Shown piece by piece: positions 19,380 through 44,982 of a stretch of 64,000 nt of DNA. The stretch comes from Candidatus Nanoarchaeia archaeon. GTDB taxonomy: Archaea > Nanobdellota > Nanobdellia > Woesearchaeales > JAQUVJ01. Both the position numbers and the translations under genes were made by a program. The stretch is from positions 46,387-110,386 of the forward strand of contig JAQUVJ010000001.1 of the NCBI GenBank assembly GCA_028693395.1, read 5' to 3'. The notes under the pieces were generated by a model. It worked only from the letters and a program-made list of their open reading frames with translations. It searched no databases and was not told the DNA's origin. The stretch's first letter is position 1, and each line of letters starts with the position of its first letter.

Positions 19380-21545
19380 TTACATTCCCATTACACTTGA
19401 TGCTATATTTGAGAAAACTAAAGATAATATCAATCCTATTACGCAATACATAAGTGTTGCTTTTATTACACTTTTTGCTAAATATATTCTTCCTTCTACC
19501 TTATCTGAACCATCTTTTATTGAAGAATAAAGTACAGACAAAATAACTATAATTTCAACAACATAAACTCCAACAACTATTTGAAAAAAATAAGTCGGAA
19601 CTCCAACATCAAACATAGATGTCAAACCTCCAGCCATTCCATCAGTTCCCGCAAAATCATCCATGGTCTTAGTTAATGATAAAATTATCATTGATATCAT
19701 TGCAGTAATCGCAACAACAACAGATGTAATAACAGGTGCGACAAAACTAATCTGACTCTTTATGGTACTTAAAATATCACTCATTATATCCTTTAATCTT
19801 TCTTCTACTTCATGAATTCTTTTAAGATAATTCGATATATTAATCATAGCAAAAGATGAAGCAAGAGGACTTTTTTCAGACGTTTGAATTAAAATTTTCA
19901 TTGCTGTTTGTAAAATTGCAGAAGGATATCTATGAGCTGCACCATATTCTTCATCGAATATAGCATCTTTTAATCCCATTCCTAATTGATTAATGTTATA
20001 TGAAACATCTTTAAAAAATTCTCCACTAATTGTTCCATCGAGATTTTGGGCAATATTTTCAATCGCTAATTCTGTTGGTATTCCATCTCCAAGTCTATTT
20101 CCTAATTGATAAAGTGCAGAAGTAATATCACCATCAATTCCTTTACCTTTATCTTTTATTTTTTTTAAATTAATATTTTGTATATAATAATAAACTCCAA
20201 TTGCAACAGATATTCCTATTGGTATAAAATAACTTAAAAGTGTAGAAATCATACCAAATGGCCCTAAAAGAGTTCCTGATTTATCTCTTGCATAATCCAT
20301 CATCTTTAAACCTCCATAAGAAACTTCAAAAGATGGATTGATAGCATGAATAATTAAAGGTGAAAATCCTATTATAAAAAAGAAAATTAAAACAAAAATT
20401 GCTACTTTCATTGGAGTAATTTTTACAGTATTATTAGGATTTTTTTTGTCTTTTATTATTAATTTTCTTAAATCATCATATTTTGGATCATCAAAATCAG
20501 AAAAAGATCCTACAGCAATATTTCCTGTTGGTCTTGTAGATAAAATATCATAAACCAAATAAAAAATAATCAATGGTAAAATTACATCATAAAACGCAAA
20601 CAAATGATACCATCTAACTCCTCCCATAAAACTAACTGCTAAAGGTAGAATAATCATAGTAAGCATTGGTAGTATTACACCAAGCATCGTTACCATTGTT
20701 ATTGGAGAATGCAATTCTTGTGAATAATGTAGCATCTTTTCATAAGTTTCATTTAAGATTTGCTCTAAAGCTCTATCTAATAGATTTAATCTTCTTGTTT
20801 CATCTCCTTCATATAATGAACTTTCAATTAGATGAATACTTTCAATAAATTCTAAATTTGATTTTCTCCATTGTTCCAAATATTCATCAATTGCCACTTT
20901 TACTGATTGTTTTGCACCAGTTTCATAATTCCATACAATTCCCATTAAATCTAAAGAAATTGGTGGATCAATGTGATCTGCAGTAAACTTTAAAGCTAAT
21001 TCTAAATTAGAATTATGTCTCATATAAGTTGTTAAATAAAATACTGCCATTACCATTTGACTTGATGTTTTTATTTTCCATTGTTGAGCTAAATGTTTTG
21101 GGTATGTTGCTAATATAAAATAAACAAATCCACCAATAAGAAATGGAAGCATATACATTATTAAAGAACCCGTTGGAGCTACTAAAATTAATGATATAAA
21201 TCCTAATAAAATAGATGCAATAAAAGAAAAAGCAACAGTTGAACTTGGAGTTACATTTACTCTTGCAAATTTTAAATAATCTTCAATTTTTTCTTCTTTT
21301 TCTTTGGGTAAAGTTATATTAAACAACTTACCAGACCATTCACACCCTTTTATGTATAAATTTTGTTTTAAATTTGAAAATTGATTAATAAAACTTCTAT
21401 AATCATTAGTTATAACATCATTATAACCATCACTATCATTTGAATAATTAACTTTTGATCCACTATCTAATATATTAGAATTGTTTTCAAATTCTTTGTC
21501 TAATTTATTCGAATATTTTTGAATTATATCTTCGTAATTATCCAT
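19380..21545 (-). CDS. Polytopic membrane protein, possibly a type II secretion system F-domain (FlaJ/TadC-like) pilus/archaellum assembly platform
   Basis: 721 aa. Soluble N-terminal domain followed by two blocks of TM helices separated by a cytoplasmic domain, which resembles archaeal FlaJ/TadC. No adjacent secretion ATPase is seen. Confidence 0.35.
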   Translation of the reverse strand: MDNYEDIIQKYSNKLDKEFENNSNILDSGSKVNYSNDSDGYNDVITNDYRSFINQFSNLKQNLYIKGCEWSGKLFNITLPKEKEEKIEDYLKFARVNVTPSSTVAFSFIASILLGFISLILVAPTGSLIMYMLPFLIGGFVYFILATYPKHLAQQWKIKTSSQMVMAVFYLTTYMRHNSNLELALKFTADHIDPPISLDLMGIVWNYETGAKQSVKVAIDEYLEQWRKSNLEFIESIHLIESSLYEGDETRRLNLLDRALEQILNETYEKMLHYSQELHSPITMVTMLGVILPMLTMIILPLAVSFMGGVRWYHLFAFYDVILPLIIFYLVYDILSTRPTGNIAVGSFSDFDDPKYDDLRKLIIKDKKNPNNTVKITPMKVAIFVLIFFFIIGFSPLIIHAINPSFEVSYGGLKMMDYARDKSGTLLGPFGMISTLLSYFIPIGISVAIGVYYYIQNINLKKIKDKGKGIDGDITSALYQLGNRLGDGIPTELAIENIAQNLDGTISGEFFKDVSYNINQLGMGLKDAIFDEEYGAAHRYPSAILQTAMKILIQTSEKSPLASSFAMINISNYLKRIHEVEERLKDIMSDILSTIKSQISFVAPVITSVVVAITAMISMIILSLTKTMDDFAGTDGMAGGLTSMFDVGVPTYFFQIVVGVYVVEIIVILSVLYSSIKDGSDKVEGRIYLAKSVIKATLMYCVIGLILSLVFSNIASSVMGM

Positions 21546-21658
21546 TAATTAAAAATACAATTTACAGTATTTAAAAAGTTAGTTTTCACTAATTAATTAA
21601 TACAGAATACTTTTGGAATAATAAAATATAAAAAATAAGAAAACATTAAATAAAAAAA

Positions 21659-21744
21659 TGTGGGGGGGAGGATTCGAACCCCCGAACTCACTAAGAGACA
21701 GGATCTTAAGTCCTGCGCATTTGGCCAGGCTTTGCTACCCCCAC
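21659..21744 (-). tRNA. tRNA-Leu (anticodon UAA)
   Basis: Reverse complement folds as acceptor GTGGGGG/CCCCCAC, D-stem GCA/TGC, anticodon stem CAGGA/TCCTG and loop CTTAAGA (anticodon TAA). It has a long variable arm, T-loop TTCGAAT and discriminator A. No encoded CCA. Confidence 0.8.
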
Positions 21745-21794
21745 AATAATAATCTAATTCTTGGATTGATAAATGCTTTATAAATATTTTGTTT

Positions 21795-23045
21795 TTAAGC
21801 TAATATTATTTCTACTTTGTTTATTCTATTATGGTTTACATCTTTTATATAGAATTTATATCCATTTAATTCAAAATTTTCATTTTCTTTTGGAAGATAA
21901 CCTATCGAATCCAACAAATAAGAAGAAATTGTTTTAAAATCTTCTCCTTCTATTTTTATATTTGTTTTTTCGCAAATTTCACTAATCTCAACAAGACCAT
22001 TTACAATATATCCTCTTTTAGTCTTAACGATTTCGTTTTCAATAATATCAGTTTCATCATATATCTCTCCAACAATTTCTTCTAACAAATCTTCAATTGT
22101 TACAAGTCCAACAATTGTACCATATTCATCAACAACAAAAGCAATATGAATTTTTTTATTATTCATATCATAAAAAATATCATTTAATTTTCTATTACTT
22201 GGAATAATTATTGGATCTCTCATTATTTTCGCAATTGGTGTATCTTCTTTTTTCCCTATAATATCTTTTACAAAAAGTACTCCTTTCAAATCATCTAAAT
22301 CTGAATCATAAACAGGTATTCTAGAATATCCCATGTTAATTATTTGATCAATTACATCTCCTATATCATTATTTATATCAATAGCAAAAATTTCAGATCT
22401 TGGAACCATTACATTTGATACCTCTATATCATTAAAATTAAATATATTTTTTATCATTTCTTTTTCATCTTTTCTAATCGTTCCTATCTCTTCACCAATA
22501 TTAACAATATTCATTAATTCATCTTCTGTTATTAATGGTTTTTTATTATTATTTGAAACTTTATTAAAAAATTGAGTTATTTTTGAAAAGAAAAATACAA
22601 ATGGCGAAAATATTTTTGATAAAACATTTACAATAGGACTTAATTTTAATGCAATCTTTTCAGCATGAACTGTACAATAAGATTTTGGTGCTATTTCACC
22701 GAAAACTAATATAAAAAAAGTCATTAATCCTGTTGCAATTCCAACACCATAATTTCCAAAATAATCTATAGCAAGACTTGTAGCAACAGCTGACGCACCT
22801 ATATTTACAACATTGTTTCCCAACAATATTAAAATCAATAATTTATTTGGGTCGCTTTTTAATTTTTCCAATAACAAAGCATTTTTAAAGTTTTTTTTTA
22901 CAAGGTATTTTACTCTTAATTTACTTATTGATACAAAAGCCGTTTCCATTCCTGAGAAAAAAGCGGACATTAATACCAGTATCAATAATATAATAATATT
23001 TAGCATATTTTTCTGGCACCTTAAATCTGATAAATAAGATATCAT
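21795..23045 (-). CDS. CNNM/HlyC-family transporter-associated protein (DUF21 TM domain, CBS pair and CorC_HlyC domain)
   Basis: 416 aa. N-terminal four-helix membrane domain, two CBS motifs and a C-terminal CorC/HlyC-type domain. Confidence 0.7.
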   Translation of the reverse strand: MISYLSDLRCQKNMLNIIILLILVLMSAFFSGMETAFVSISKLRVKYLVKKNFKNALLLEKLKSDPNKLLILILLGNNVVNIGASAVATSLAIDYFGNYGVGIATGLMTFFILVFGEIAPKSYCTVHAEKIALKLSPIVNVLSKIFSPFVFFFSKITQFFNKVSNNNKKPLITEDELMNIVNIGEEIGTIRKDEKEMIKNIFNFNDIEVSNVMVPRSEIFAIDINNDIGDVIDQIINMGYSRIPVYDSDLDDLKGVLFVKDIIGKKEDTPIAKIMRDPIIIPSNRKLNDIFYDMNNKKIHIAFVVDEYGTIVGLVTIEDLLEEIVGEIYDETDIIENEIVKTKRGYIVNGLVEISEICEKTNIKIEGEDFKTISSYLLDSIGYLPKENENFELNGYKFYIKDVNHNRINKVEIILA

Positions 23046-23281
23046 ATTTAAATATTGCTATCATATTATTAGTTAATACTGTTATTTCAAAAATAAATTA
23101 AAAAATATAAAAATATTAACTTTTAATTCAAATAGTTATAATAAAAATAGAATACAAATATAAAAAATAAAAATAGAATAAATAATTTAAAAAACTAATA
23201 ATTAAAAAATAATGTATCAAGAAACAAAAAATTACAAACAAAAAAATAAAGAAATAAAAAAACAATAAAAAAAATAAAAAA

Positions 23282-25729
23282 TCAATTAAAAAAAACTTTT
23301 AGATAATCTAACAACTTTTTTTTATTTTGTTTTAAATCATCATAATTATCAATTATATTTTTTAAAACTTGATCTTTTACTTGTGGATTTTCTTTAGATT
23401 TCTTTAAATATAAATACATTAAAATTTCTTTTAAATTGTTATTTATTAATTTATCTAAACTTCTGCTATCCATATCTTCATAATCATTACTATGAGCTTC
23501 TAAATATTTTTTGATTTCATTTCCTATAACTTCTTTTGTTACTGATTGATTTAAATCATTTCTTTGTGAAAAATTATTTTCAACTGATTTATTTCTGTCA
23601 TTTTCAAAATTATTAAAAACATTATCATTAAAAATGAAATCATTATTTCTCTCATTGCTTTTCTGATTATTTTTTTCAAATAAAAAATCATTATTAAAAT
23701 TATTTAAATTTCCTTTATTATAATCTTCTCTTTGATTATTTTCAAAACTTTTATTATAATTTTGAGAATTTAATTCATTTAATGTTTTAGAGTAATTTTC
23801 TTCATTAACTAAATTTTCTGAACCAAAATCCATGTTTTTAAAAAAATCATTACTTTCTTTTTTATTATTACTTGATGTTAAATCAAATTCATTATTAAAT
23901 CCATTATTGTTATTTGAAAAATCTACAGAAAAGTTATTTTCTTTTTGTAAATCATTAAAAACAATATTAAATTCATTACTATTCTCATTAGTGTTTTGAT
24001 TTATATTTTGATTTATATTTTGATTTGAATTCTGATTAAAATTTTGATTAAAATTTTGATTAAAAATATCATATTCTCTTTCAATATTTTCTTTTTTTTC
24101 TTGAGTAAAATTATCAAAAGAAAAATTAAAATTATCAAAATTTTCTTTTCTTTCAGTATTTAATTCTTTTTCTTTATCATTGGAATTAAAAAAATCAAAT
24201 TCATTCTTATTTGAATTATTTTCAAAATTTTGATTATTAATATTATCAAAACTAGTTTTTCTTTCTTCAAATTTTTTCATAAATTCTTTTTCAAAATCAC
24301 TAACGTTTGTATCTTCAACTTGTGAATTATTAAAATTGTTTGCATGATTTTCTTGATTTATTTGATTTTCATTTGTAATCATAGAACTTTTAAATTGATT
24401 TTCTTGATTTCCATAATTAATATTTCTATTTTGATTTTCATTTAAATTATTTGTATCAAATATTTCTGCAATTGTTTTTCTTGCTAAATCTTTTATATTT
24501 CCTTCACAACTACCTATGATGTCTTCTAATAAATCAACATTCAAAACATATAACATATTATTTTCAAACAAATAATCTACTAGAAATATTCCATCTAATT
24601 TCCTGTAAATTCTTGAAATTTCTATTAATTCCTTATCATTTAATTTTTGATCATTTTGACTATTCATTTCTACAGATTCTGTATCAAATCTTGAATCAAT
24701 AAAAACAACTTTTTTTTCTTGTCTTCTAATATCTCTATAAACAACTTCCATTAAATTATTATCAACGATATATCTGTCAGAATGTATTTCTTCAAGTAAT
24801 CTATGTTTGTTTTTTAATACATCTCTTATTTCTGAAGATGTAAGATTGTATCCGTAATTTCCAAAGATTATTGAATTATTTATATTAACTAAATAATATT
24901 GCATTGGAGCTACATCTAAATTTTGTAATTTATAAAGTCTTGAATAATGATCACTAAAATTTTTTGTAAAATCTCCATCATTAATCAAATATAAACTATT
25001 ATCATATATCTTCTTAGATGTATTTGTTATAATAAATCCACTCTTATTTGCATTTTTTCTTTCTTGAACAATTATATTATATTTTACTTTTTCAATTAAT
25101 TCTATAAATTTATTTTTAAAGCTTACTTCATCAACTCTTATTTCTTTTTTAAATAAATCAATAAAATCATATTTTCTCATCATATTTACAAAAAACTTCG
25201 TTGTGAAAAATTCTGCAAATGATGCTTTTATATGTAAATATAAACTTTCTAATGAATTAATATCGATATAATTTGCATATCCTAATTCTTTACTAGAACG
25301 ATTATCATTTAAACTTAATTTTAAAGCAACTTCTAAATTATTTGATTTTGAATTTAAAATCTCATCAGTTGTTTTTCTTGAATTCATCGATTCATAAAAA
25401 TATTTTATATCATTCGATGTATCTTCATCAAAATTTGCACTATAAACCATTTTTTGAATAATATTTAATTTATTTTGCAATTCTGCAATCATGTAAGTCT
25501 CTGAATATGAGACATTATATTTTGTTTTCACAATATCATATAAATTTAAATATATTTTTCCTAATAATTTGTTATAAACTAAAAATTCTTTAAAGACTTG
25601 ATCTGAAATAACAAAAGTCTTTGGAACATTAACATTATCATTTTTTAATTTTGCAAGCAAAAAAGCTTTGTTTCCTATTTCTTCCATTGAATACTGTAAT
25701 CCTTCTTCTAACCAAAACATTTTTTTCAT
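23282..25729 (-). CDS. Standalone PEP-utilizing-enzyme N-terminal (PPDK_N) ATP-grasp-like domain protein with a long N/Q-rich low-complexity region
   Basis: 815 aa. The N-terminus (MKKMFWLEEGLQYSMEEIGNKAFLLAKLKNDNVNVPKTFVISDQVF) parallels the PEP synthase/PPDK N-terminus (W.LEE...GGKaanL...VPpGFvIt). About 400 aa of N/Q/F-rich repeats follow. No phosphohistidine or PEP-binding domains are present. Confidence 0.45.
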   Translation of the reverse strand: MKKMFWLEEGLQYSMEEIGNKAFLLAKLKNDNVNVPKTFVISDQVFKEFLVYNKLLGKIYLNLYDIVKTKYNVSYSETYMIAELQNKLNIIQKMVYSANFDEDTSNDIKYFYESMNSRKTTDEILNSKSNNLEVALKLSLNDNRSSKELGYANYIDINSLESLYLHIKASFAEFFTTKFFVNMMRKYDFIDLFKKEIRVDEVSFKNKFIELIEKVKYNIIVQERKNANKSGFIITNTSKKIYDNSLYLINDGDFTKNFSDHYSRLYKLQNLDVAPMQYYLVNINNSIIFGNYGYNLTSSEIRDVLKNKHRLLEEIHSDRYIVDNNLMEVVYRDIRRQEKKVVFIDSRFDTESVEMNSQNDQKLNDKELIEISRIYRKLDGIFLVDYLFENNMLYVLNVDLLEDIIGSCEGNIKDLARKTIAEIFDTNNLNENQNRNINYGNQENQFKSSMITNENQINQENHANNFNNSQVEDTNVSDFEKEFMKKFEERKTSFDNINNQNFENNSNKNEFDFFNSNDKEKELNTERKENFDNFNFSFDNFTQEKKENIEREYDIFNQNFNQNFNQNSNQNINQNINQNTNENSNEFNIVFNDLQKENNFSVDFSNNNNGFNNEFDLTSSNNKKESNDFFKNMDFGSENLVNEENYSKTLNELNSQNYNKSFENNQREDYNKGNLNNFNNDFLFEKNNQKSNERNNDFIFNDNVFNNFENDRNKSVENNFSQRNDLNQSVTKEVIGNEIKKYLEAHSNDYEDMDSRSLDKLINNNLKEILMYLYLKKSKENPQVKDQVLKNIIDNYDDLKQNKKKLLDYLKVFFN

Positions 25730-26264
25730 AAAAACACCTATTTATTCATATATTAACAAACTTATAAATCTTATGTTTTGTTATTTAAAAACAAAACTAT
25801 TTTTTATTATTCTATTATATTTTATTTTTTAAAATTATTTTATTATTAAATAGATAATCACAATAAAAATAATAATAATGATAATAATAGTAATAGTAAT
25901 AATAATAAACATATTTGCTATTTATATTTAATTATTTGTATATTTTAAGTTATAATTTTTTATTGTCTTTTTTATTTTACATATTTTTTTATTATTAATA
26001 TTCTTTTATATTTTGTATTTTTTTTATTTTTATTTTTTTTATTATTATAATTTTTTACTTTAGTATTTATTATTTTTATTTGTTATTTGTAATTATTTTA
26101 TTTATATTTCTTAATTTGTATATTTTTCTTTAATAAAATTGATTATAATTCATTTAATGTTTTTAATTTAAAATATTTGTTAAGATTATTAAATAATTAA
26201 TTAAAAAAATATTTAAAAAAATAATTAAATAAAAAAATAAGTGGAAAATTAAGTGAAAAATTTA

Positions 26265-29063
26265 CTAAAAGAAATTTTTATATTTATCAAAATCAATTAA
26301 CATATTTTTTCTTGTTTTTAAATTACATATTATAAATTTATTAACATCAGGCACAAAATCATTTAATTTTTGATAATCTGTTTCTCTTATCCAAGATCCT
26401 GAATTAATTATATCAATATTATTGTATCTTTCTAATATTGTTTTATGTAAATGTGCTGTATAAAAAATATCAATATCCTCTGGAATAAATAAGTAATCTT
26501 TTTCAGAATTTATGTATGAATATGTTGAACCATATTGCATGGCAAGATGACCTTTATTTAACAAATCTATTAAAAATTCTTTAAATCTTTTTTCTTCATT
26601 TTTAATATTATAATAATAATCTTCTTTTAGATATTTTAAAAAAGAACCTCCATGGTAATAAAATATTTTTATCATGTTTTCTTTGTTATCTTTTATCTCT
26701 ATAAAAGAAGGATTTGTAGTAAATGAAACATTTTCCAAAGAATATAATTTTTTATAATATTTTAATGGAAGTATTGGCTGTGGTTCTTCTAAGATTGATG
26801 TATCATGATTTCCTGGTGCTAAAATTATGTTTAAATCTTTTCTTAATGATTTTAAGATTTCATATAAATAATCAATTTGATTGTAAATATTTTTTATCTC
26901 CAAATCATTTTCTTGCTTTGGATAATTACCAATCCCATCTATTAAATCTCCTCCTAAAAATAAATAATCTATTGATAAACCTAATTTATTTAATTTTTCA
27001 CTTTTCGTTTTTCCATTTAAAAATTTAAAGAAATTTTTTATATCTTCGTAATTTGTATTTTTATTTCCAATATGAAGATCACTTGCAAAAGTTATTAATG
27101 AATTTGTTGTTAATGAATTTAATTTGTTTTTCTCTATTTGATTTATTATTATTTTGTCGATGATAAATAATTTTATGTTTTTATCAAAATGACCACTAAA
27201 TCCGCAAATATCATCTAAAAAGATTTTTCTTACATCAAAATCTTTACTTAAATTATTTGAAATAACTGCTTTTATATTATCTGTTTTATCTTCTAATGTA
27301 TAAACTAAATTACCTTTTTTTGACAAATGAAAATCACTAATCATTGCAACTATACTTACATCACCTAAATCAATTGTTTTTACTCTATTTATTGTATATA
27401 TATTTTTCAAATCTTTATTTTTTGATAATTTTTCATAAAAAACATCATATCTATTTCTAAAATGATCTATAAAATCTCTTGGGGTTAAATCTTTTTTGAA
27501 AGAAAAGTTTATGTTATTTATAGTTAATATATCTGGTTGATTTATTTTATTGTCTTTGTTTATTATTAATTTTTCATATATTGAATTATTAAATAGTTGA
27601 TATCTTTTTTTTATTTTTTCTATAATATTTTCATTAATGTTTCCTTTGAAAATTTCTAAATCATTATTTTTATTTTGATTAATTTTTTGATTTAATTTTT
27701 CATCATCACTAAGAAAATTATTATTATTATTATTATTATCGATATTTTTATTATCAATATTTTTATTATTTATTTTATTATCGTTATTATTGTTGTTATC
27801 ATTATTGTAATTATTTACTTCTTGAAATTTTTCTTTTTTATTTTTTTCATATTCTTCATATTTTTTATTTTCTTCATTTTCTTGATTTTCTTTATTTTGT
27901 TGATTATCTTCATTATTTTCATTATTTTCATTATATATTTTTTTTATATCTTTTTCATTAAAATATTCTTCTAAATCATCAATTGATAAAACAACTTCTT
28001 CATTATTATTATTATTTTTATTTTTATTTTTTTCGTTTCTTTTATTATTTTCAATATTTTCAATATTTTCATTAAAATCACTAAAATCAGAATCAGAATC
28101 AGAATCAGAATTCTCTAAACTTTCTTTTTGTAATTTCTCACTTTTTTTTTGATTTTTTTTGATTTTATTTTCATTAGCTTTTTTATTTGTTTTTATTAAT
28201 TCATCTATAACTTCTTCTATGTTTAAATTTAAATCTAATTTTGAAATAGTTTCTTGCATGAAATCTTTTATTTTTTCTTTATCTAAAGATAATTGTATTT
28301 GAGAATATTTTTCCCAATTTATTGATTTAATAATTATATTATTTGAAGTCCTATCAATTATATAATTTAAAAATGGTAAAAAAACAATGTCATTTTTCAT
28401 TGTTTTGAAAAACTTTTCTTTTTTTTGTTTAAAAGTTATTGTATCTTTGTTTATCTTTATTGTTTTTGCATTTTTATTTTTTTTTGAAAATTTAATAAAG
28501 AAATTAATTAACATATCAAAAAAACATTTGTCATCTATATCATATAAATGTCTAAAGATTTGAATTTCTTTTTTAGGATGCTTAGAAATTGTTTCTTCTA
28601 CTGTTGTTAAATAAAAACTTATTCTTTTTTTAAAATTACTTTTATATTTTACATAAATTTTTTTTTCAAAATCTTTATTTGTTAAACTTTCTTCTACTAA
28701 TTTTTCTATGAATTTATTATAGAATAATGTTAATATAAATGAATCTATATAAAAAAATTCAATATCTTCACTCTCACTTTTTTCTTTGTAATTTTCGATT
28801 AAATTTATTATAATATCTATTAATGTTATTTTTAATAATTTTGATATGAAATCTATTTGATAATAATTTAAAAAATCTTTTTCGTTAATTATTCCTTCAT
28901 TGAAATAAAATTTATGATTTTCTTCATCAAAGTTTTGTTGTAAATAATCCATATCGATTAAATCAATTGATAAACTTTCAATTAATTCTACAAATGAATT
29001 TAAATTACCATACAAATAATTTTTTGAATCTAATTGTTCTTCTAGATATTTTATAATTTCCAT
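26265..29063 (-). CDS. DNA polymerase II (PolD) small subunit DP1 with a long N-terminal extension
   Basis: 932 aa. The C-terminal half has an OB fold plus calcineurin-like phosphoesterase motifs (ITFASDLHIGN, LFLGGDLIDGIG, LAPGNHD, HLHK). The N-terminal ~500 aa are non-canonical and carry D/S/N/E-rich low complexity. Confidence 0.75.
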   Translation of the reverse strand: MEIIKYLEEQLDSKNYLYGNLNSFVELIESLSIDLIDMDYLQQNFDEENHKFYFNEGIINEKDFLNYYQIDFISKLLKITLIDIIINLIENYKEKSESEDIEFFYIDSFILTLFYNKFIEKLVEESLTNKDFEKKIYVKYKSNFKKRISFYLTTVEETISKHPKKEIQIFRHLYDIDDKCFFDMLINFFIKFSKKNKNAKTIKINKDTITFKQKKEKFFKTMKNDIVFLPFLNYIIDRTSNNIIIKSINWEKYSQIQLSLDKEKIKDFMQETISKLDLNLNIEEVIDELIKTNKKANENKIKKNQKKSEKLQKESLENSDSDSDSDFSDFNENIENIENNKRNEKNKNKNNNNNEEVVLSIDDLEEYFNEKDIKKIYNENNENNEDNQQNKENQENEENKKYEEYEKNKKEKFQEVNNYNNDNNNNNDNKINNKNIDNKNIDNNNNNNNFLSDDEKLNQKINQNKNNDLEIFKGNINENIIEKIKKRYQLFNNSIYEKLIINKDNKINQPDILTINNINFSFKKDLTPRDFIDHFRNRYDVFYEKLSKNKDLKNIYTINRVKTIDLGDVSIVAMISDFHLSKKGNLVYTLEDKTDNIKAVISNNLSKDFDVRKIFLDDICGFSGHFDKNIKLFIIDKIIINQIEKNKLNSLTTNSLITFASDLHIGNKNTNYEDIKNFFKFLNGKTKSEKLNKLGLSIDYLFLGGDLIDGIGNYPKQENDLEIKNIYNQIDYLYEILKSLRKDLNIILAPGNHDTSILEEPQPILPLKYYKKLYSLENVSFTTNPSFIEIKDNKENMIKIFYYHGGSFLKYLKEDYYYNIKNEEKRFKEFLIDLLNKGHLAMQYGSTYSYINSEKDYLFIPEDIDIFYTAHLHKTILERYNNIDIINSGSWIRETDYQKLNDFVPDVNKFIICNLKTRKNMLIDFDKYKNFF

Positions 29064-29242
29064 TTTAAACGTTTTTTTATTTTATTGTGATTTTTTGTAA
29101 TTTTTTGTGATTTAAAACTTTATTGTTTTTTAACATATATGGATTAATAATATATTTATAATTAAAATTTTTAAAACTTGATTATTATAAACTATTTTAA
29201 AATTTGATTATTAAATTTATTATAAAAAATTATTATAAAAGT

Positions 29243-29286
29243 TAATTACAAATATTAATTACAAATATTTTAATTTACAAATATAA
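29243..29286. repeat. Direct repeats TAATTACAAATAT (about 3 copies) between cdc6 and DP1
   Basis: gttaattacaaatattaattacaaatattttaatttacaaatat lies immediately upstream of the DP1 start codon. Confidence 0.5.
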
Positions 29287-29301
29287 ATAAAAATTGAGAT
29301 T

Positions 29302-30513
29302 TTAATTTTTAATTGATTCATCTATAAATTCTTTAATTTTTAAAAGATAATTATCTGCAAAATTTATTGAAATTTCTGTTGTTCTTCCATATCTTCCTTT
29401 TGAAATTACTTTTTGATTTATTAAACCTAAAGTGTCAAGTTCAGATATTATGTCAGAAATTCTTCTTTGAGTTAATGGTCTTATAGAAAAAATCTTTACG
29501 ATGTCAGTATAAGTTCCATAGATTTGACCAGTTTGTTGTTTTTCTTGTTTTTTTTCCATTTTGTTTTTTATTATTGCATAAATTACTGCTTGTTGTTGTT
29601 TTGGTTGTGCTTTTATTGCCTCAAAAACATTATCTTTATCTATTTTATCTCTTGCCTCATCTAAATCTTCAATTGTTACTTTATCTTTTTTACTTCTTTG
29701 GGCAATTTCTCCTGCAATTCTAAGTAATTCAATAGCTCTTCTAACATCTCCATGTTCTCTTGCTGCAAATGCTGCACATTTTGCTACAACACCTGGTGGC
29801 ACACTATCTTCAACAAACCCTTTATCAACTCTGTCTTTTAATATTGTTTTTATTTGAACTGCGTTATATGGGTCAAATAAAACTTCTTCTTCTGAAAGTG
29901 AACTTTTTACTCTTGCATCTAAAAGACTTGTAAATGTTAAGTCATTTGCAATTCCTATTAAAGTTATTTGAGCTTTTTTTAATTCTGAATTTATTCTTGT
30001 TAAATTGTATAATAATTCATCTCCTATTTTTTTTACTAATTGATCTATTTCATCAAGAATTATAATATAAATACACTCTTTTTTATCAATTAATTTATAG
30101 AAAATATCATAGATTTTGTCGGTAGGAAGTCCTGTTGTTGGGACCTGTTCTCCTAAATGTTCAATCAAAGATGCAAGCAAACGATATTCAGTATCTGCAA
30201 CTTTTTTTAATTTACAATTAATATATATCACTTTTAAAGATAGTTTTTCTTCTTGAGCAATTTCCACTAACTGTTCTGTTGTATGTTTTACTGTTAATGT
30301 TTTTCCCGTTCCTGTTTTTCCATAAATAAAGATGTTTGATGGTTTATCCATATTTAATGCAGGTGATAAAATATCAGCAATTGTATTAATCTCCTCTTCT
30401 CTATGAAAAACTTCCTCTGGAAAATAATTTGATTGTAGAACTTTTTTATTTGAAAAAATATTTGTTTCATTTAAATGAGATTTAAATATATTTTTCTTAA
30501 TAATTTCTTTCAT
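29302..30513 (-). CDS. cdc6: Orc1/Cdc6 replication initiator (AAA+ ATPase with winged helix)
   Basis: 403 aa. Walker A (GKTGTGKT), Walker B (IIILDEID), sensor regions and a C-terminal winged-helix domain (RRISDIISELDTLGLI). Confidence 0.85.
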   Translation of the reverse strand: MKEIIKKNIFKSHLNETNIFSNKKVLQSNYFPEEVFHREEEINTIADILSPALNMDKPSNIFIYGKTGTGKTLTVKHTTEQLVEIAQEEKLSLKVIYINCKLKKVADTEYRLLASLIEHLGEQVPTTGLPTDKIYDIFYKLIDKKECIYIIILDEIDQLVKKIGDELLYNLTRINSELKKAQITLIGIANDLTFTSLLDARVKSSLSEEEVLFDPYNAVQIKTILKDRVDKGFVEDSVPPGVVAKCAAFAAREHGDVRRAIELLRIAGEIAQRSKKDKVTIEDLDEARDKIDKDNVFEAIKAQPKQQQAVIYAIIKNKMEKKQEKQQTGQIYGTYTDIVKIFSIRPLTQRRISDIISELDTLGLINQKVISKGRYGRTTEISINFADNYLLKIKEFIDESIKN

Positions 30514-30637
30514 AAAAATAAGAATTGAATTATGTTATTTAAAGATTTGTTTATTGAAAAAATGGTATGATTTTCTTTTGTAAATTAGTATATATTTGTT
30601 GTATATTTTTATTAATGTTATTTTTTATTTTATTTTT

Positions 30638-30714
30638 ATTATGTTTTTATTATGTTTTTATTATGTTTTTATTATGTTTTTTATTATGTTTTTATTATGT
30701 TTTTTATTATGTTT
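30638..30714. repeat. Tandem array of about 7 units of ATTATGTTTTT (11-12 bp) in the divergent cdc6/cca intergenic region
   Basis: Units at 30638, 30649, 30660, 30671, 30683 and 30694 plus a degenerate seventh. They are head-to-tail with no spacers. Only spurious ORFs cover the array. Confidence 0.75.
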
Positions 30715-30827
30715 ATTTTGTTGTTTTCTTTATTATTTCATTATTTTATTATTAAAATTCACTAAATTAAACCTTATTAATTTTTAAAAAGATAAAAATT
30801 TATAAAAAAAAGATATTTCAAAAACTT

Positions 30828-32234
30828 ATGAACATAAAAGAAATCAAATTAGAATTGTTAGATACAATTTATTCTAACCTAGATGAAAAAAAAAATAAAT
30901 CTATAAATAGTTTTATTAAATCATTAAATAATATAATTCTAGAAAATAATCTTCCTATTTTTCTAAAAGTGGGAGGTAGTTATGCAAAACAAACATTTCT
31001 GGGAAATGATTTTGATGTTGATGTATTTCTTAGAGTTAAAAATGATGAAAAAAAAAATGAATCTTTTGATGATATAATTACAAAATTCATTGAAATATTA
31101 AAATTAAAATATCTAAAAATAAATAAGATTCATGGATCAAGAGATTATTATCAGTTTGTAAAAGATGATGTAAAATACGAATTGGTTCCTAATAAATACA
31201 TTGATGATTTATCACAGGCAACAAATACTACTGATTATAGTCCTTTTCATGTTGATTTTTTAAAAAAAGAAATGCTAAAAAACAAAAAATTAAATGATGA
31301 AATAAGAATTACAAAAATGTTTTTAAAAGCTTGCAATTGCTATGGAGCAGAATCATATATTAATTCTTTTTCTGGACATAGTCTTGATATTTTAGTTGCA
31401 TATTTTAAAAATTTTGAAAATACATTAGAATTTCTTTCTAAAATCAATATTAGTAAAAAATATTTAATTGATATTAGTGATTTTTATAAAAACGATTTTA
31501 CTAAAAATATTGATTTCTCAATTTCAAAAGAAGATTATGAAAAGATAAAAAAACAATTTGATAATAAGATTAATTCTTCTTTAATTATTATAGATCCTAT
31601 TGATAAAAATAGAATTGCATCATCAGCATTAAATAATTACAGGATTTTAAAAATAAAATATTATTCTAAATTATTTTTAGAAACTCCAAGTTCATTTTTT
31701 TTTGAAAGAAACATTAAATTCAAGAAAAAAAGTAATAATATAATTTTAAAATATGAAAAAAATAATGAAAACATGGATATTTGTGGAGCAAATGTTTTAT
31801 CAATAAAAAGAAAATTATCTAATTTTCTAAAGGAAAACGATTTTGAAGTTTTAGATAATTTTGATTTCACAAATTTTAGATTTTTTAAAAGAGTAAATAA
31901 AAGAAAAATTGATGAATTTAATTCTAAACATGAAGATGTTTTTTTTGATGGTAATCATTTTTATTTGAAAATTATTTTAAAAAAAAATAAAATTTCAAAA
32001 TACAAAATAATAAAAGGTCCTATTTTTGAAATGGAAGAAAACACAAAAGAAGAAATAAAAAATTCAATAGAATCCTTTAAAAACTCACATAAAAATACAT
32101 TCATTAAAAATGAAGAAAATAAATATTATATTTTTGCTAAGGAAAAAAGAGAGAAAAGAAAATTAAGATTTTTCATAGAAGATTTCTTTGAAAAAAGAAA
32201 GGATATTGAAAAATACGTAAATAGAGTTAAATAG
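30828..32234 (+). CDS. cca: Archaeal class I CCA-adding tRNA nucleotidyltransferase
   Basis: 468 aa. N-terminal NTase signature VGGSYAKQTFLGNDFDVDVFL (GS...D.D), and a size and architecture typical of archaeal CCA enzymes. Confidence 0.55.
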   Translation: MNIKEIKLELLDTIYSNLDEKKNKSINSFIKSLNNIILENNLPIFLKVGGSYAKQTFLGNDFDVDVFLRVKNDEKKNESFDDIITKFIEILKLKYLKINKIHGSRDYYQFVKDDVKYELVPNKYIDDLSQATNTTDYSPFHVDFLKKEMLKNKKLNDEIRITKMFLKACNCYGAESYINSFSGHSLDILVAYFKNFENTLEFLSKINISKKYLIDISDFYKNDFTKNIDFSISKEDYEKIKKQFDNKINSSLIIIDPIDKNRIASSALNNYRILKIKYYSKLFLETPSSFFFERNIKFKKKSNNIILKYEKNNENMDICGANVLSIKRKLSNFLKENDFEVLDNFDFTNFRFFKRVNKRKIDEFNSKHEDVFFDGNHFYLKIILKKNKISKYKIIKGPIFEMEENTKEEIKNSIESFKNSHKNTFIKNEENKYYIFAKEKREKRKLRFFIEDFFEKRKDIEKYVNRVK

Positions 32235-32334
32235 AAAATGAAAAGATAAATAGAATTAAAATTTTAATAATAAATAAAATTTTTAGTAATATTTATAAAC
32301 CCCCTGTTTATCTAACATTCATTGAAACTCAAAT

Positions 32335-32439
32335 GGGCCTGTAGCTTAGCCTGGTTGGAGCGCTGGTCTTATATGGCTACGTTTTAAACATAGGTTCTAA
32401 GAGAACCAGTGGTCCTGAGTTCAAATCTCAGCAGGCCCA
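32335..32439 (+). tRNA. Intron-containing tRNA with anticodon UAU (tRNA-Ile decoding AUA); intron of about 30 nt (32374-32403) at the canonical 37/38 position
   Basis: Acceptor GGGCCTG/CAGGCCC, D-stem GCTT/GAGC, anticodon stem CTGGT(32363-32367)/ACCAG(32405-32409), loop C-T-TAT-A (U33 and purine 37 conserved), T-arm CTGAG-TTCAAAT-CTCAG and discriminator A. The anticodon-loop CTTA can pair with intron TAAG to form a BHB-like helix. Confidence 0.7.
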
Positions 32440-32448
32440 GATTTTTAT

Positions 32449-32523
32449 GCCCGAATGGTGTAGTCCGGCCAATCATTCGGCCCTTTCGAGGCCGAGACCC
32501 GGGTTCGAATCCCGGTTCGAGCA
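32449..32523 (+). tRNA. tRNA-Glu (anticodon UUC)
   Basis: The D-arm GGTGTAGTCCGGCCAATCAT is identical to the conserved archaeal tRNA-Glu D-arm. Anticodon stem CGGCC/GGCCG with loop CTTTCGA, and T-arm CCGGG-TTCGAAT-CCCGG. The acceptor has one C-A mismatch at 3:70. Confidence 0.8.
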
Positions 32524-32686
32524 TTAAAATAAATTGGGATTTTTTCCCAATTTTAATAATTCTAGGTTTGCTTTGTTTATTTTAATTTATTTTAAATTTC
32601 TAAAAACAACTAAAATTTACATAAAAAATTAATAAAATTCAACAAAAAAAAGAAAATTTTATATTTAATAAAGAATATAAAAATTC

Positions 32687-33172
32687 ATGAATCTTAAAAG
32701 AACACTTATAATTTATTATTCAAGTGAACATAAAAATACTTATAAAATAGCAAAAGAAATAGGTATGACCCTAAATGCAGATATTAAAGAAGTAAGTGAA
32801 GTAAACGTTAATAATTTAAATAAATATGATATAATTGGTTTTGGTTCTGGAATTTATAATAGTAGAAGTCACCCAAGTCTTTTAAAATTAATAGATTCTC
32901 TAAAAAATGTAAAAGACAAAAAAGCTTTTGTTTTTAGTACAGCACTAATAACATATAAAACAATAAACAAACCTTTGATAACTAAACTTGAATCAAAAGG
33001 ATTCAAAGTTATTGATGATTTCTATTGTAAAGGTTTTATGGATCATAAATTTGTAAAATATTTAGGTGGTTTTAATAAAGACAGACCTAATTTGAAAGAT
33101 TTAGAAGATGCAAAAAAATTTGCACTAAAATTAAAAGATTTTCTTAATAATCCTTATAAATTTAACAAATAA
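32687..33172 (+). CDS. Flavodoxin-like fold protein
   Basis: 161 aa. N-terminal LIIYYSSEHKNTYKIA and GFGSGIYN match the flavodoxin-like phosphate-binding pattern. Confidence 0.5.
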   Translation: MNLKRTLIIYYSSEHKNTYKIAKEIGMTLNADIKEVSEVNVNNLNKYDIIGFGSGIYNSRSHPSLLKLIDSLKNVKDKKAFVFSTALITYKTINKPLITKLESKGFKVIDDFYCKGFMDHKFVKYLGGFNKDRPNLKDLEDAKKFALKLKDFLNNPYKFNK

Positions 33173-33204
33173 ATTTATATATTTTCTTAATAATAAAAAA
33201 TAAA

Positions 33205-34134
33205 ATGGATAAAAGAAGTATTCTATTCGTATGTACAGGTAACATATATCGAAGTTTAACTGCACAACTTGCTTTTCAAAAATTTTTAAATGATAATAAT
33301 ATAAAAAATTGGAATGTAAAATCCGCAGGAATCAAAGCAAATAAAGAAGAAATTCATGATGGTGTAAAAAAAACATTAAAAAAATATGGATTTGATAAAA
33401 TAAATCACAAACAAACAAAACTTACTAAAAAAATATTAAACGAATATGATTGTGTTGTTGCGATGGCACAAAATCATGTTGATTTTATTAAAAATGAATT
33501 AAAATTTAATAATGTATTATTATTTAATGAATTAGCAATTGATAAAAAAACATCAATCTTGGATATTGAAGACAATGTAAAAGATTACAAAACTAATCCT
33601 GAAGCAGTAGAGAAAGAAATGGAAAAAACTATAAAATACATTTTTAACAATATAGAAAAATTATATAAAAAAGTCTTAGAAAGATTCTATATTTTCTGTG
33701 ATTTTATTGAAAATAATATTTCTCATAGAAATGGTTTTCCTTTTATAAAACTTTACGAGACAAAAAATGCAATTTCTTTTATGTCAATTGATATTCCTCA
33801 AAAAGTTGATGGACACATACTTGTAATTCCTAAAAAAAGATATAATGATTTTAAAAAAATACCTTTAAATGTACTTAGCGAAATAATGGAAATTATAAAA
33901 AAAATAGCAATAGTAATTGAAAGAAATTATGGAGGATACAACATTTTGTTAAACAATAGTACAGATGCTGGTCAATATATTTTTCATACACATTTTCATA
34001 TTATTCCAAGAATTTCTAATGACAATATAAGAATAGAATTATGGAAAAGAAATAAAATAACAAAGGAAGACTTCATCTTATTAAACAACAAATTTAAAAA
34101 AGAAATGGAAATTATAGATAAAGAAAGAAATTAA
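33205..34134 (+). CDS. Fusion of a low-molecular-weight protein tyrosine phosphatase/ArsC-like domain and a HIT (histidine triad) domain
   Basis: 309 aa. N-terminal CX5R P-loop (LFVCTGNIYRSLTAQ) and a C-terminal histidine triad (FHTHFHIIPR). Confidence 0.6.
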   Translation: MDKRSILFVCTGNIYRSLTAQLAFQKFLNDNNIKNWNVKSAGIKANKEEIHDGVKKTLKKYGFDKINHKQTKLTKKILNEYDCVVAMAQNHVDFIKNELKFNNVLLFNELAIDKKTSILDIEDNVKDYKTNPEAVEKEMEKTIKYIFNNIEKLYKKVLERFYIFCDFIENNISHRNGFPFIKLYETKNAISFMSIDIPQKVDGHILVIPKKRYNDFKKIPLNVLSEIMEIIKKIAIVIERNYGGYNILLNNSTDAGQYIFHTHFHIIPRISNDNIRIELWKRNKITKEDFILLNNKFKKEMEIIDKERN

Positions 34135-34271
34135 TAATAATAATAATAATAATAATATGATGATTATTATCTTCTTTTCTTTTTATCTGAACATTAATAT
34201 CTTTTTTATAAAAAGATGTTTAGAAATTTTTATATATAACATAAATTCTCTTACGACTATTAGGTGACATC

Positions 34272-34679
34272 ATGGATGTAAACATTGAACAATTAAATGA
34301 ATATAAATCACTTTTCAAAGGAAAAGATTTAGGATTAATAAATCAATTAAGAGATTTTCTTAAAGAAAGAAATTTAGAATACAGAATATCAGGAGATTCA
34401 CTAAATGATTTATCTGAAGATCTGATAAGAAGATACGAAAGCATTGATATTATTGTAAAAAACAAATCACAAGTTTACAAAAAATATGAAGCAGAAAAAG
34501 AACTTTTTAGAGCTACTATTGGTTATGTTATTGAGTCAGACCCTGAATTTTTCAGTAATGTTATTTCTGTAAGAGGAAATGTTAATTATACTTATAATAA
34601 TTTAAATATAGAAACTTCTTTCAAAATATCATCAAAAAATCCAAAAACAACAATAAATTTAATCTTTGAAAAAGATTAA
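34272..34679 (+). CDS. Hypothetical protein
   Basis: 135 aa ORF in a coding-like context with no recognisable motifs. Confidence 0.3.
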   Translation: MDVNIEQLNEYKSLFKGKDLGLINQLRDFLKERNLEYRISGDSLNDLSEDLIRRYESIDIIVKNKSQVYKKYEAEKELFRATIGYVIESDPEFFSNVISVRGNVNYTYNNLNIETSFKISSKNPKTTINLIFEKD

Positions 34680-36061: not shown

Positions 36062-37498
36062 TTATATCTTGTCTACCAATTGATCTAATCCATTATCCTT
36101 TACTAAAAATCCTAATTCTTTTATTTCATCTCTATATTTATCAGATTCTTCCCAATTCTTTTCCATTCTTGACTTCTTTCTTTTTTCTAATAAATCAATT
36201 ACTTCAACTGGTAAATCTAGAATTTCTTCTTTCATTTCATTAAATCTCAAACCTAATATTTCATCGAATTTTAGTAAAGTCTTAAATTTATTATCATCAG
36301 AAATTTCTTTATCATTGATTAAATTCCACATTATTCCTAAAGATTTTGGGACATTTAAATCATCAAAAACTGATTCAAAAAATAAATTTTCATATTCCTT
36401 TGATTTTTCTATTGATTGATTATTGTTTTTATCATTATATTGATTATTCATCTTTTTAATTTCTATTATTTTTGTTTTTAATTTTTCAAATCCTAATTTT
36501 GAATTTTCAATTGCATCCCAACTAAAAGACAATTCTTTTCTGTAATGTGTATTCAAACAAAAATATCTAAAAACCAACGGATCATATCCTTTTTTCTCAA
36601 GTAAATCTACTCTTAGAAAATCTCCTGATGATTTTGACATTTTTCCATCCTTTAAAACTAAAAAATTTCCATGTAACCAATATTTTACCCATGGTTTTTT
36701 ATTTGTAGATGCTTCCGATTGAGCAATTTCATTAGTATGGTGAACATTTATATGATCAATTCCTCCTGTATGTATATCAAATTGTTCTCCTAAATATTTC
36801 ATGCTCATGGCACTACATTCAATATGCCATCCTGGATATCCTATTCCCCATGGACTGTCCCATTTCATTGAATGTGAACTTCCAAATTTTGAATTTCCAA
36901 GTGTAAACCATAAAACAAAATCTGAAAAATTTCTTTTATTATCATCTTGTTCTACTCTTGAAGAACTTTCTAGATTTTCTAATTTTAATTTTGCAAATTT
37001 TGTATAATCTTTAAATTTAGATGTGTCAAAATATACATTTCCACCACTTTGATAGGTAAATCCATTTCTTTCTAATTTACCAATCATTTTTTGCATTTCA
37101 TTTATATGTTCAGTTGCTTTACACCAAACTTGTGGTTTATGAAGATTTAATTTATTCCAGTCTTTTTTAAATTCATCTGTGTAGTATTGTGCAATTTCTT
37201 CTACTGTTTTTCCTTCTCTTTTTGCACCTTCTTCCATCTTATCATCTCCTTGATCTCCATCATCTGTTAAATGTCCAACATCTGTTATATTTATTACATG
37301 CTTAACTCTATATCCTGCAGATACTAATGTTCTATACAATATATCATTAAAAATATAAGTTCTCATATTTCCTAAATGAGCATAATTATAAACAGTTGGA
37401 CCACATGAATAAAAACCAACTTCGTTTTTATTTATTGGCTCAAATTTTTCTTTTTTCTTTGTTTTAGTATTATATAATATCAATTCCATAATTCTCAC
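36062..37498 (-). CDS. cysS: Cysteinyl-tRNA synthetase
   Basis: 478 aa. HIGH-type motif (HLGNMRTY), Zn-binding Cys residues and KMSKS (KMSKSSGD). Confidence 0.9.
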   Translation of the reverse strand: MRIMELILYNTKTKKKEKFEPINKNEVGFYSCGPTVYNYAHLGNMRTYIFNDILYRTLVSAGYRVKHVINITDVGHLTDDGDQGDDKMEEGAKREGKTVEEIAQYYTDEFKKDWNKLNLHKPQVWCKATEHINEMQKMIGKLERNGFTYQSGGNVYFDTSKFKDYTKFAKLKLENLESSSRVEQDDNKRNFSDFVLWFTLGNSKFGSSHSMKWDSPWGIGYPGWHIECSAMSMKYLGEQFDIHTGGIDHINVHHTNEIAQSEASTNKKPWVKYWLHGNFLVLKDGKMSKSSGDFLRVDLLEKKGYDPLVFRYFCLNTHYRKELSFSWDAIENSKLGFEKLKTKIIEIKKMNNQYNDKNNNQSIEKSKEYENLFFESVFDDLNVPKSLGIMWNLINDKEISDDNKFKTLLKFDEILGLRFNEMKEEILDLPVEVIDLLEKRKKSRMEKNWEESDKYRDEIKELGFLVKDNGLDQLVDKI

Positions 37499-37939
37499 TT
37501 TTTCATTTGTAATTTTTCATTTGTATTTTATATTTGTAATTTTTTAATTTAATTTTTTAATTTAATTTTTTACACTTCTCATTTCAAATTATCTTGCTAA
37601 TTTAAAATAATATAATCATTATAATTTATTACTTATAATATATATACTTTTATAAAAATATATTATTTATTTTTAAGAAAAATTATTGTTGACAGTACTC
37701 AATAAAAAAATAAGAATTTTGTTTTTTTACAATTATCATGTTATTAGTAATAATATTTTATTTATAAACTTTTTTAAAAGATAAATAATATAATAACATA
37801 AACAAATAAAATCATGAATAAATAAAATTTAAAAAATGATTATGTAATAATTTTAATAAAAATTTTATTTTTTTAAATTATAATATAACAAAGAAAGAAA
37901 AAATAAAAAGAAAAAAATTAAAAAAAATAAATTAACAAA

Positions 37940-42688: not shown

Positions 42689-42933
42689 TTTTTTTCACTA
42701 TTTATAAATATGTTTCAATATAAAAATTTTGCATTTATTTAATAATAATTTAATTAAAAAATATAAACATATTAAAAAAATAAATTAATAAAATAATAAT
42801 GTAATAAAATAAAAAAAATAATAAATAAAAAAAATAATAAATAATAAAAACAATAAATAAAATAAATTAATTAATAATTTAATTAACAATTAAAAAAATT
42901 AATAAATAAAAAAATTAATAAACAAAAATAAAA

Positions 42934-44262: not shown

Positions 44263-44448
44263 TTTTTTTCCTCATATTTTGGTTCATTTATTTCAACCTA
44301 TTTTTTCCTTTTCTAACACTTCTAGACTTATTTTATCATAACAATCATTCTTTAATCTTTATTTACTTTTTATTATCTTAAAATAAAAAAAATAATTATG
44401 AGAAACTAAAAAACATAAAGATTCACAAACTTAAATTATTTTATAAAT

Positions 44449-44691: not shown

Positions 44692-44834
44692 AAATGCAAT
44701 TTAATTATCTAAGTACTATAAACTTTCTTTTTTATTATATAAATTTTATTAATTTATATTTTTTCAATATTTTACATAAAAACAAATTAAAATTAAACAA
44801 AAATAAATATAATAAAATAAAATAAATATAAAAA

Positions 44835-44912: not shown

Positions 44913-44982
44913 AATTATAATGATGATAATAATAAATATAATAAATTAAAAAAATTTATAAATTAAGATATATTATTAAAAT

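Follow-up and report, generated by a model that had tools for sequence, protein, structure and literature searches.

We examined a 64-kb window (21.3% GC), the whole stretch of DNA analysed here, from a metagenome-assembled genome of a DPANN Nanoarchaeia archaeon, in which an earlier note had proposed a chromosomal replication origin at the junction between the divergent genes orc1/cdc6 (below, cdc6), for the replication initiator, and cca, for the CCA-adding enzyme. The proposal is supported in part, by its gene context through homology, but by none of the sequence features that had been offered for it: these features are real, yet they are not distinctive for the cdc6 locus. The explanation we prefer, and consider probable from comparison of sequences, is that the two sets of repeats flanking cdc6 are fast-evolving AT-rich minisatellites in ordinary promoter-bearing spacers, and that canonical origin recognition boxes (ORBs) were lost from the spacer. 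The repeats would then not be conserved initiator-binding sites, and the origin may either persist at the cdc6 locus in a degenerate form or lie outside the window. The sequence gives no positive evidence that replication starts in the cdc6 spacer; origin function there is neither shown nor excluded.

Origin recognition boxes upstream of cdc6

The comparison covered 137 further cdc6 loci, at 49-59% identity, from species-representative genomes and metagenome contigs of Woesearchaeota, Pacearchaeota and Nanoarchaeota. In essentially all of them cdc6 is followed, on the same strand, by the gene for DP1, the small subunit of DNA polymerase D, which makes the gene context pointed out in the earlier note informative by homology. 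An unsupervised 13-mer repeat search upstream of cdc6 found the same dyad independently in many of these loci (TTTCCTGTGGAAA, TTTCCTATGGAAA, TTTCCACATGAAA and similar). The resulting clade ORB consensus, cACCCCTTtATTTCyTaTGGAAA (reverse complement TTTCCAtArGAAAtAAGGGGTg), holds the 'TTCC' and 'GAA' cores that have been described for Pyrococcus and Sulfolobus ORBs (PMC1904270). Scanning with a 23-nt clade matrix at a threshold of 14 bits gave 284 matches in the 84 kb of upstream sequence (700 bp before each cdc6) vs 74 in the other 1.23 Mb. The matrix was trained on cdc6 upstream regions, which makes the score distribution somewhat circular; the de novo recovery of the dyad and the contrast with flanking DNA are not circular.

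The matches are equally divided between orientations (150:148), 206 of them lie no more than 200 bp from the cdc6 ATG, and the median distance of the nearest is 53 bp. Where full flanks were available (82 loci), 81 loci had at least one upstream ORB and 74 had at least two; relatives carry 2-5 per locus, facing either way and no farther than about 400 bp from the ATG. Apart from the window's own lineage, L023 is the only locus without any ORB. One ORB often lies ~25-35 bp before the cdc6 ATG, overlapping the promoter (L006-L146). In one subclade (L111, L112, L117, L120, L123, L125-L129, L134 and L145) a strong ORB pair, of up to 33 bits, is found 3.4-4.0 kb downstream of cdc6, past a two-gene block; the pair may mean that Orc1 binds at a second site there, or that the origin has shifted.

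Given the cdc6-DP1 synteny and the ORBs just upstream of cdc6 in relatives, the spacer upstream of cdc6 in the window is the positional homologue of the clade's predicted oriC. Like the predicted oriC of relatives, it precedes cdc6 and DP1 in the same order and orientation and is an AT-rich spacer of similar length; unlike them, it has no canonical ORB. The best match in the whole 64 kb scores 13.5 bits, inside the gene at 33205-34134, and upstream of cdc6 the score is ~1 bit. An archaeal oriC would be expected to bring at least two ORB or mini-ORB elements, each with a TTCC...GAA core and often a G-string, and at least one pair of them inverted; the window shows no such arrangement. The absence extends to the lineage: five informative relatives, all short contigs encoding the same or a similar Cdc6, were available (Cdc6 identity to the window 100% in L001, which comes from another sample, 92% in L003, 83% in L004 and 76% in L005), and no ORB match of at least 10 bits was found in L001-L005 or in L086. 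We also considered low GC as the cause of the loss and rejected it, since relatives at 23.2-29% GC retain 2-6 ORBs scoring 15-36 bits; a canonical ORB of the low-GC relative L048 reads TACCCCTTTATTTCTATTGGAAA.

The earlier note had itself remarked, correctly, that the repeats do not resemble ORB or mini-ORB elements. The only near match to the clade mini-ORB dyad TTTCYWWTGGAAA is the sequence TTTCTTTTGTAAA (Table 1), which sits inside the conserved block next to cdc6 and has no C/G-string. At the rate of 26 such one-mismatch matches per 128 kb of strand, chance alone would put about 0.2 of them into the two spacers, and in L003 the remaining GAAA half-site is degraded as well (TTTACAAAATAAA). 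A degenerate search for the dyad alone in both spacers gave 2-3 matches at up to two mismatches vs ~1 expected, with no clustering. The string 'CATACCAT' beside the dyad was tried as a decayed C-string and set aside, because the polarity of a canonical ORB would put such a string on the other side of the dyad.

Repeats in the two spacers

The cdc6-cca spacer measures 314 bp (30514-30827) and has 10.8% GC. The head-to-tail array of about seven units reported there was recovered by Tandem Repeats Finder (TRF): seven near-perfect ATTATGTTTT(T)T units at 30638-30714 form the core of a longer array with degenerate flanks, in which tracts of 5-6 T recur at roughly the helical repeat. The threefold direct repeat reported between cdc6 and DP1 is likewise present, at 29242-29284.

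Neither set is stable among close relatives; repeats that vary or are missing where synteny is kept had been named in the earlier note as refuting the origin. L001, with an identical Cdc6, matches the window from the cdc6 ATG to ~130 bp upstream and then has, past its array, an unrelated distal flank; its array consists of ~4 units of A[TC]ATTACAAAA, where the window has 7 x ACATAATAAAA (gene strand). In L003, which keeps the cca-cdc6 synteny, the ATTATGTTTTT array is gone altogether, no other upstream array is found, and alignment is limited to the ~97 bp next to the ATG. The downstream repeat fares no better: TAATTACAAATAT is present in three copies in the window and four in L001, is replaced by a ATTTATATTTATT-type array in L003, and was not found in L004 (where the spacer has shrunk to 45 bp) or in L005 (where nothing comparable exists). 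The whole cdc6-DP1 spacer varies in the same manner, with 238 bp in the window, 341 bp in L003 and 287 bp in L005, and its content is unconserved too. Repeat elements conserved in relatives, as an oriC would be expected to have, were thus not found in L001, L003, L004 or L005.

Nor are the repeats peculiar to cdc6. Among the 24 spacers of at least 150 bp in the window, a TRF array with a score of 50 or more is present in 23 (for example 25730-26264, 44263-44982, 6827-7368 and 42689-42933), and one with a score of 80 or more in 18. Intergenic TRF rows scoring at least 80 numbered 61 in the real sequence vs 2.9 in composition-matched, second-order Markov simulations, a ~20-fold excess; repeat formation is therefore a genome-wide property. 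The extreme AT-richness noted upstream of cdc6 is genuine in that the region is non-coding at 10.8% GC, but it is ordinary for this DNA, ranking 16th of the 24 spacers. The cdc6 spacers, at 9-11% GC, are like all the other spacers, and no ORBs bracket any AT-rich unwinding element. All the marks of minisatellites are present, namely short head-to-tail units, strain polymorphism and similar arrays throughout the non-coding DNA; the arrays would most likely have arisen by replication slippage or unequal exchange.

Contig ends are consistent with an unstable repeat at this place, four of the six lineage contigs ending within 60-260 bp upstream of cdc6. A metagenome scan for further lineage members gave one more contig at 92%, with 51 bp of upstream sequence, and a scan of the genome collection gave no match above 57% identity. 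More widely, in 26 of 143 cdc6 loci the available DNA begins within 300 bp upstream of cdc6, mostly at a contig end (L006, L012, L013, L015, L017, L028, L029, L033-L035, L040, L041, L043, L059 and L067 among others, and also L001, L002, L004 and L086). It seems that assemblies are especially prone to break where the ORBs or repeats lie.

Four parts appear to make up the cdc6-cca spacer (Table 1): next to cdc6 the promoter block of that gene, ~97 bp long and conserved; then the unstable array; then AT-rich DNA without conservation; and last the promoter of cca. The block at 30514-30610 is the sole conserved part, and its proximal 52 bp are identical in all six lineage sequences. Within it lies TTTAAATA, which, from general knowledge of archaeal promoters, we take to be the TATA box of cdc6; its spacing to the ATG would imply a leaderless or near-leaderless cdc6 mRNA. 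By its phased T-tracts the array may bend or stiffen the stretch that separates the cdc6 and cca promoters, an effect that would be sequence-nonspecific. Two mechanical open reading frames, 30567-30755 and 30596-30787, sit in the low-complexity array and were not counted as genes, and an Rfam scan of the window returned tRNAs only, with no RNA family in either spacer.

In the cdc6-DP1 spacer one motif stands apart. Three ATYACAAAAA units (on the gene strand AATCACAAAAA, ATTACAAAAA and ATCACAATAA) form a direct repeat that is the sole repeat motif common to the window and L003, where ATCACAAATAC occurs two to three times in the same place; the motif occurs three times in this 238-bp spacer vs 5-7 times in 9.0 kb of other intergenic DNA. 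We regard it as a candidate promoter-proximal regulatory site of DP1. An alternative is that the short repeats are transcription-factor sites regulating DP1, cdc6 or cca, rather than replication elements. It would explain why ATCACAAA(T/A)A direct repeats persist in the window and in L003 alike, 25-60 nt before the DP1 ATG, despite turnover of the spacer, and a TTACAAAT-core array lies directly upstream of another gene, cysS, at 37499-37572. It is nevertheless unlikely, because they are absent upstream of DP1 in L004 and L005 and the large upstream array is wholly unconserved. The cysS-upstream array consists of TTTTTTATTTGTAA x5.5 (reverse complement TTACAAATAAAAAA), next to cysS at 36062-37498 on the minus strand, and shares its TTACAAAT core with the repeat in the cdc6-DP1 spacer.

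Table 1. Features of the orc1/cdc6 locus (window positions)
Feature	Position	Strand	Basis or remark
DP1, PolD small subunit, 932 aa	26265-29063	-	Pfam PF04042 (DNA_pol_E_B) at aa 657-845
cdc6-DP1 spacer, 238 bp, 9.2% GC	29064-29301	.	almost wholly short repeats
Three direct ATYACAAAAA units (TTTTTGTRAT on other strand)	29072-29113	-	25-60 nt upstream of DP1 ATG
26-nt unit x2.7, holding AAAAYTTGATTAT twice	29161-29227	.	repeat search
TTAATTACAAATAT x3.0 (TAATTACAAATAT x3)	29242-29284	+	TRF
orc1/cdc6, single, 403 aa, Orc1-1 type	29302-30513	-	Pfam Cdc6_C 4.7e-25, Cdc6_lid 9e-22, AAA_22
Conserved ~97-bp block, putative cdc6 promoter	30514-30610	-	alignment with 92% relative L003
TATA-box-like TTTAAATA	30536-30543	-	23-30 nt upstream of cdc6 ATG; invariant in lineage alignment
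TTTCTTTTGTAAA, near match to clade mini-ORB dyad	30572-30584	+	1 mismatch, G next to AAA
11/12-nt minisatellite	30618-30754	+	TRF period 11, 12.3 copies, 83% match, score 156-162
TATA-like TTTATAAAA, putative cca promoter	30799-30807	+	21-29 nt upstream of cca ATG
cca, archaeal CCA-adding enzyme, divergent from cdc6	30828-32234	+	Pfam PF09249

Strand asymmetry across the window

The earlier note had correctly described runs of minus-strand genes (19380-30513) and plus-strand genes (30828-34679) meeting at the candidate origin. The divergent switch is real but is not distinctive; several other divergent junctions occur in the window, and those at 6827-7368 and 44263-44982 have longer spacers than cdc6-cca, with comparable arrays. 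The earlier note had taken the lack of a skew inflection near 30.6 kb as refuting the origin. Raw GC skew does change sign at ~30 kb; the change coincides with that of gene orientation, and the cumulative skew goes on falling until the window ends. A regression over the genes gave 0.20 for gene strand and -0.005 for the side of 30.6 kb (t=-0.36 for GC, -0.11 for AT). The inflection thus vanishes once gene orientation is modelled, and raw GC skew was discarded as origin evidence, the dip at 30 kb being a 4-kb run of plus-strand genes and the side term being null. Both refuting conditions of the earlier note that could be checked, variable repeats and a missing inflection, have thus come out against the origin.

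At third codon positions, read on the genes' own coding strands, minus-strand genes have G>C and plus-strand genes C>G, with the same sign to the left of 30.6 kb (p=5e-7) and from 30.6 to 52.8 kb (p=1e-22). The same is seen at fourfold sites, and beyond 52.8 kb the asymmetry is gone. From 1 to 52.8 kb the minus strand is thus G-rich whichever way the genes run; the asymmetry is independent of transcription, and its sign does not change at cdc6; the switch in strand-composition polarity expected at an oriC was not found within the 64 kb, in a measure whose calibration in relatives is weak. Pooled over the 137 relatives, ±5-6 kb around cdc6, the strand effect was +0.09±0.02 upstream and -0.02±0.03 downstream, so that the skew change at cdc6 in relatives is weak and not bacterial-like. 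We therefore take the skew as absence of support and not as proof against an origin.

The loss of asymmetry at 52.8 kb may reflect a reversal of replication direction, a rearrangement or a joint in the assembly. This junction has no ORB, and its neighbours are ordinary (an M16 peptidase-like gene and a Na/H exchanger); beyond it lie gyrA (55129-57558) and SMC (60469-63987).

These observations bear on the possibility that the origin has moved away from cdc6 to a place outside the window, with canonical ORBs, leaving the cdc6 spacers as plain promoter regions. Such a relocation is compatible with the explanation we prefer, being one branch of it, and we hold it only tentatively. It would account for a Cdc6 that keeps its DNA-recognition residues although no ORB of at least 14 bits occurs in 64 kb, and the one third-position polarity at 1-52.8 kb, lost beyond, agrees with replication running one way through the cdc6 region. 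Within the lineage, gene order upstream of cdc6 has already been disrupted: the cca-cdc6 adjacency is kept in L003 only, tRNAs lie upstream of cdc6 in L005, cca has a different neighbour in L148, and a search for cca homologues found a different cca neighbourhood in the 83% relative. The shifted ORB pair of the subclade described above also speaks for mobility of ORB position. Against this, relocation would be rare, with one of 82 relatives lacking cdc6-proximal ORBs, and the weakness of the polarity in relatives makes a replication reading of the skew uncertain.

The initiator, its neighbours and the place of the origin

The gene context itself is sound. The single cdc6, followed by DP1 on the same strand, was confirmed by Pfam and tblastn, the latter giving no second cdc6 copy in the 64-kb window, and both spacers flank cdc6, as expected of an oriC. 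NCBI names the identical protein 'orc1/cdc6 family replication initiation protein [Candidatus Nanoarchaeia archaeon]', and it aligns over its full length with 2QBY_A (6e-94) and 2V1U_A (1.3e-87). The AAA+ domain with Walker A and B, the lid and the winged helix are present (GKTGTGKT, LDEID, LTQRR.SD and GRYGRT).

DP1 has the C-terminal calcineurin-like phosphodiesterase/Pol-epsilon-B fold expected of a PolD small subunit encoded beside cdc6, although its PF04042 score (30.6 bits) is barely over the cut-off of 29.1. The canonical portion is aa ~520-932; the DP1 proteins of relatives align to aa ~520-930 only. With the products of the genes that follow cdc6 in some 135 relatives, DP1 shares 26-34% identity. 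The first ~520 aa are atypical, with a ~300-aa N-terminal domain followed by a ~200-aa low-complexity linker rich in N, K, E and D. This extension, which had no Pfam match, is lineage-specific (72% identity in L004, 43% in L005) and makes the protein ~2x as long as in relatives. On the other side of cdc6, beyond cca, Rfam found a tRNA of 105 nt at 32335-32439 (+; 56.7 bits), which adjoins tRNA-Glu (32448-32524); as ARAGORN missed it, it probably contains an intron.

Several points weigh against reading the spacers as ordinary. The adjacency of Cdc6 and the near-universal ORB position in relatives make a strong prior for an origin here. ATYACAAA-type motifs occur four times in the 238-bp cdc6-DP1 spacer, convergently, vs 1.15 per kb of intergenic DNA; their direct-repeat version is conserved with L003, and the upstream array of L001 bears the same ATTACAAAA core, so that the motif could be a diverged recognition element. 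In Cdc6 the basic residue directly after the wing GRYGRT, 92% conserved in relatives (K in 2QBY_A, R in 2V1U_A), is changed to T (R379T), a change common to the 92%, 83% and 76% relatives, which, if the residue touches DNA, would fit altered DNA contacts. The skew calibration on relatives is weak, as described, and our view is confined to 64 kb of a 125,815-bp contig and to five short contigs of relatives.

A further alternative is that the cdc6 locus is still the chromosomal origin in a lineage-specific form: Cdc6 would read the TTTACAAAAGAAA dyad at 30572-30584 and the ATYACAAA repeats on both sides of cdc6, and the unwinding element would be either the T-tract array or an AT-rich core of 130 bp within the cdc6-DP1 spacer. 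The spacer is positionally homologous to the ORB clusters found in 81 of 82 relatives, the conserved block sits at the relatives' proximal ORB position, and repeat clusters on both sides of cdc6 recall the Thermococcales, which have a second ORB cluster in dp1 (PMC1904270). The enriched, convergent and partly conserved ATYACAAA motifs, the ATTACAAAA core in the L001 array units and R379T would all find a place in such an origin. We nevertheless hold it to be doubtful. First, the motif is post hoc, having been derived from these same repeats. Second, the arrays differ in unit and copy number at identical Cdc6 and are gone at 92% identity, L004 has a spacer of 45 bp, and the dyad's sole intact half-site is mutated in L003. 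Third, a single mini-ORB does not suffice for stable Cdc6 binding in vivo in Pyrococcus (PMC1904270). Fourth, of 127 alignment columns with at least 90% conservation in relatives, Cdc6 retains 118; the recognition helix LTQRR.SD and the wing tip GRYGRT are among the parts left intact, an argument that specificity has not changed. Fifth, there is no switch in skew polarity. A change in Cdc6 DNA specificity is possible but not indicated; four of nine lineage-specific substitutions, R379T among them, fall in the winged helix, too few to call an enrichment.

A sharper version seems to us quite improbable. In it, a new AT-shifted element (of the ATYACAAA/TTTACAAAAGAAA type) would have replaced the ORB and would be read by a Cdc6 with an altered wing (R379T); its copies would form convergent clusters between cdc6 and DP1 and, upstream of cdc6, arrays that homogenise rapidly. 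If true, it would be a working archaeal origin without canonical ORBs, whose initiator sites evolve in concert like a minisatellite. That replication starts within 29.06-30.83 kb nevertheless, by whatever elements, we put somewhat below an even chance, because the positional prior is strong but every sequence test was negative.

Known systems place the locus in context. The oriC of Pyrococcus abyssi and P. furiosus (cdc6-dp1-dp2) resembles the window in that dp1 comes after cdc6 and cdc6 has repeats on either side. The ORBs and 13-bp mini-ORBs there bind Cdc6 and are conserved from species to species, with 'TTCC' and 'GAA' cores that do not vary (PMC1904270), whereas the window's repeats lack those cores, bar the one degenerate dyad, and are unconserved even between strains. 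The Methanothermobacter thermautotrophicus origin, as summarised in PMC1904270, also has many short direct repeats beside cdc6 in an AT-rich spacer; its 13-bp repeats are ORBs in minimised form, to which Cdc6-1 binds specifically and cooperatively, unlike the 11/12-nt unit ATTATGTTTTT, which has no dyad and changes between strains. The repeats also resemble AT-rich intergenic minisatellites, or variable-number tandem repeats produced by slippage, with head-to-tail units of 9-14 nt that are strain-variable, unconserved at 92% identity and genome-wide; the only difference is the position beside cdc6. Thermococcus kodakarensis, according to PMC5663688, replicates independently of Cdc6 and oriC, showing that in an archaeon the region adjacent to cdc6 need not be a working start site; it still has a canonical ORB-bearing oriC, whereas in the window the ORBs themselves are missing. 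For the Nanobdellota, 208 complete genomes were presented in a 2026 preprint that uses ORC1/Cdc6 for nothing but rotating them and whose main text contains neither 'skew' nor 'ORB' (bioRxiv 10.64898/2026.05.13.725050). No mapped DPANN origin turned up in the literature searched, which is no proof that none exists.

The ORB clusters upstream of cdc6-DP1 across Woesearchaeota and Nanoarchaeota provide a usable sequence definition of the predicted oriC of the phylum. In genomes near 20% GC, an origin cannot be told by tandem repeats, by AT-richness, by divergent transcription or by raw GC skew; the flagged repeats being ordinary, the origin finding taken at face value is a false lead. If the absence of ORBs holds genome-wide, this very AT-rich lineage with its apparently intact Orc1 would be a natural test case, and might reveal how reduced archaeal genomes alter origin recognition or come to do without it.

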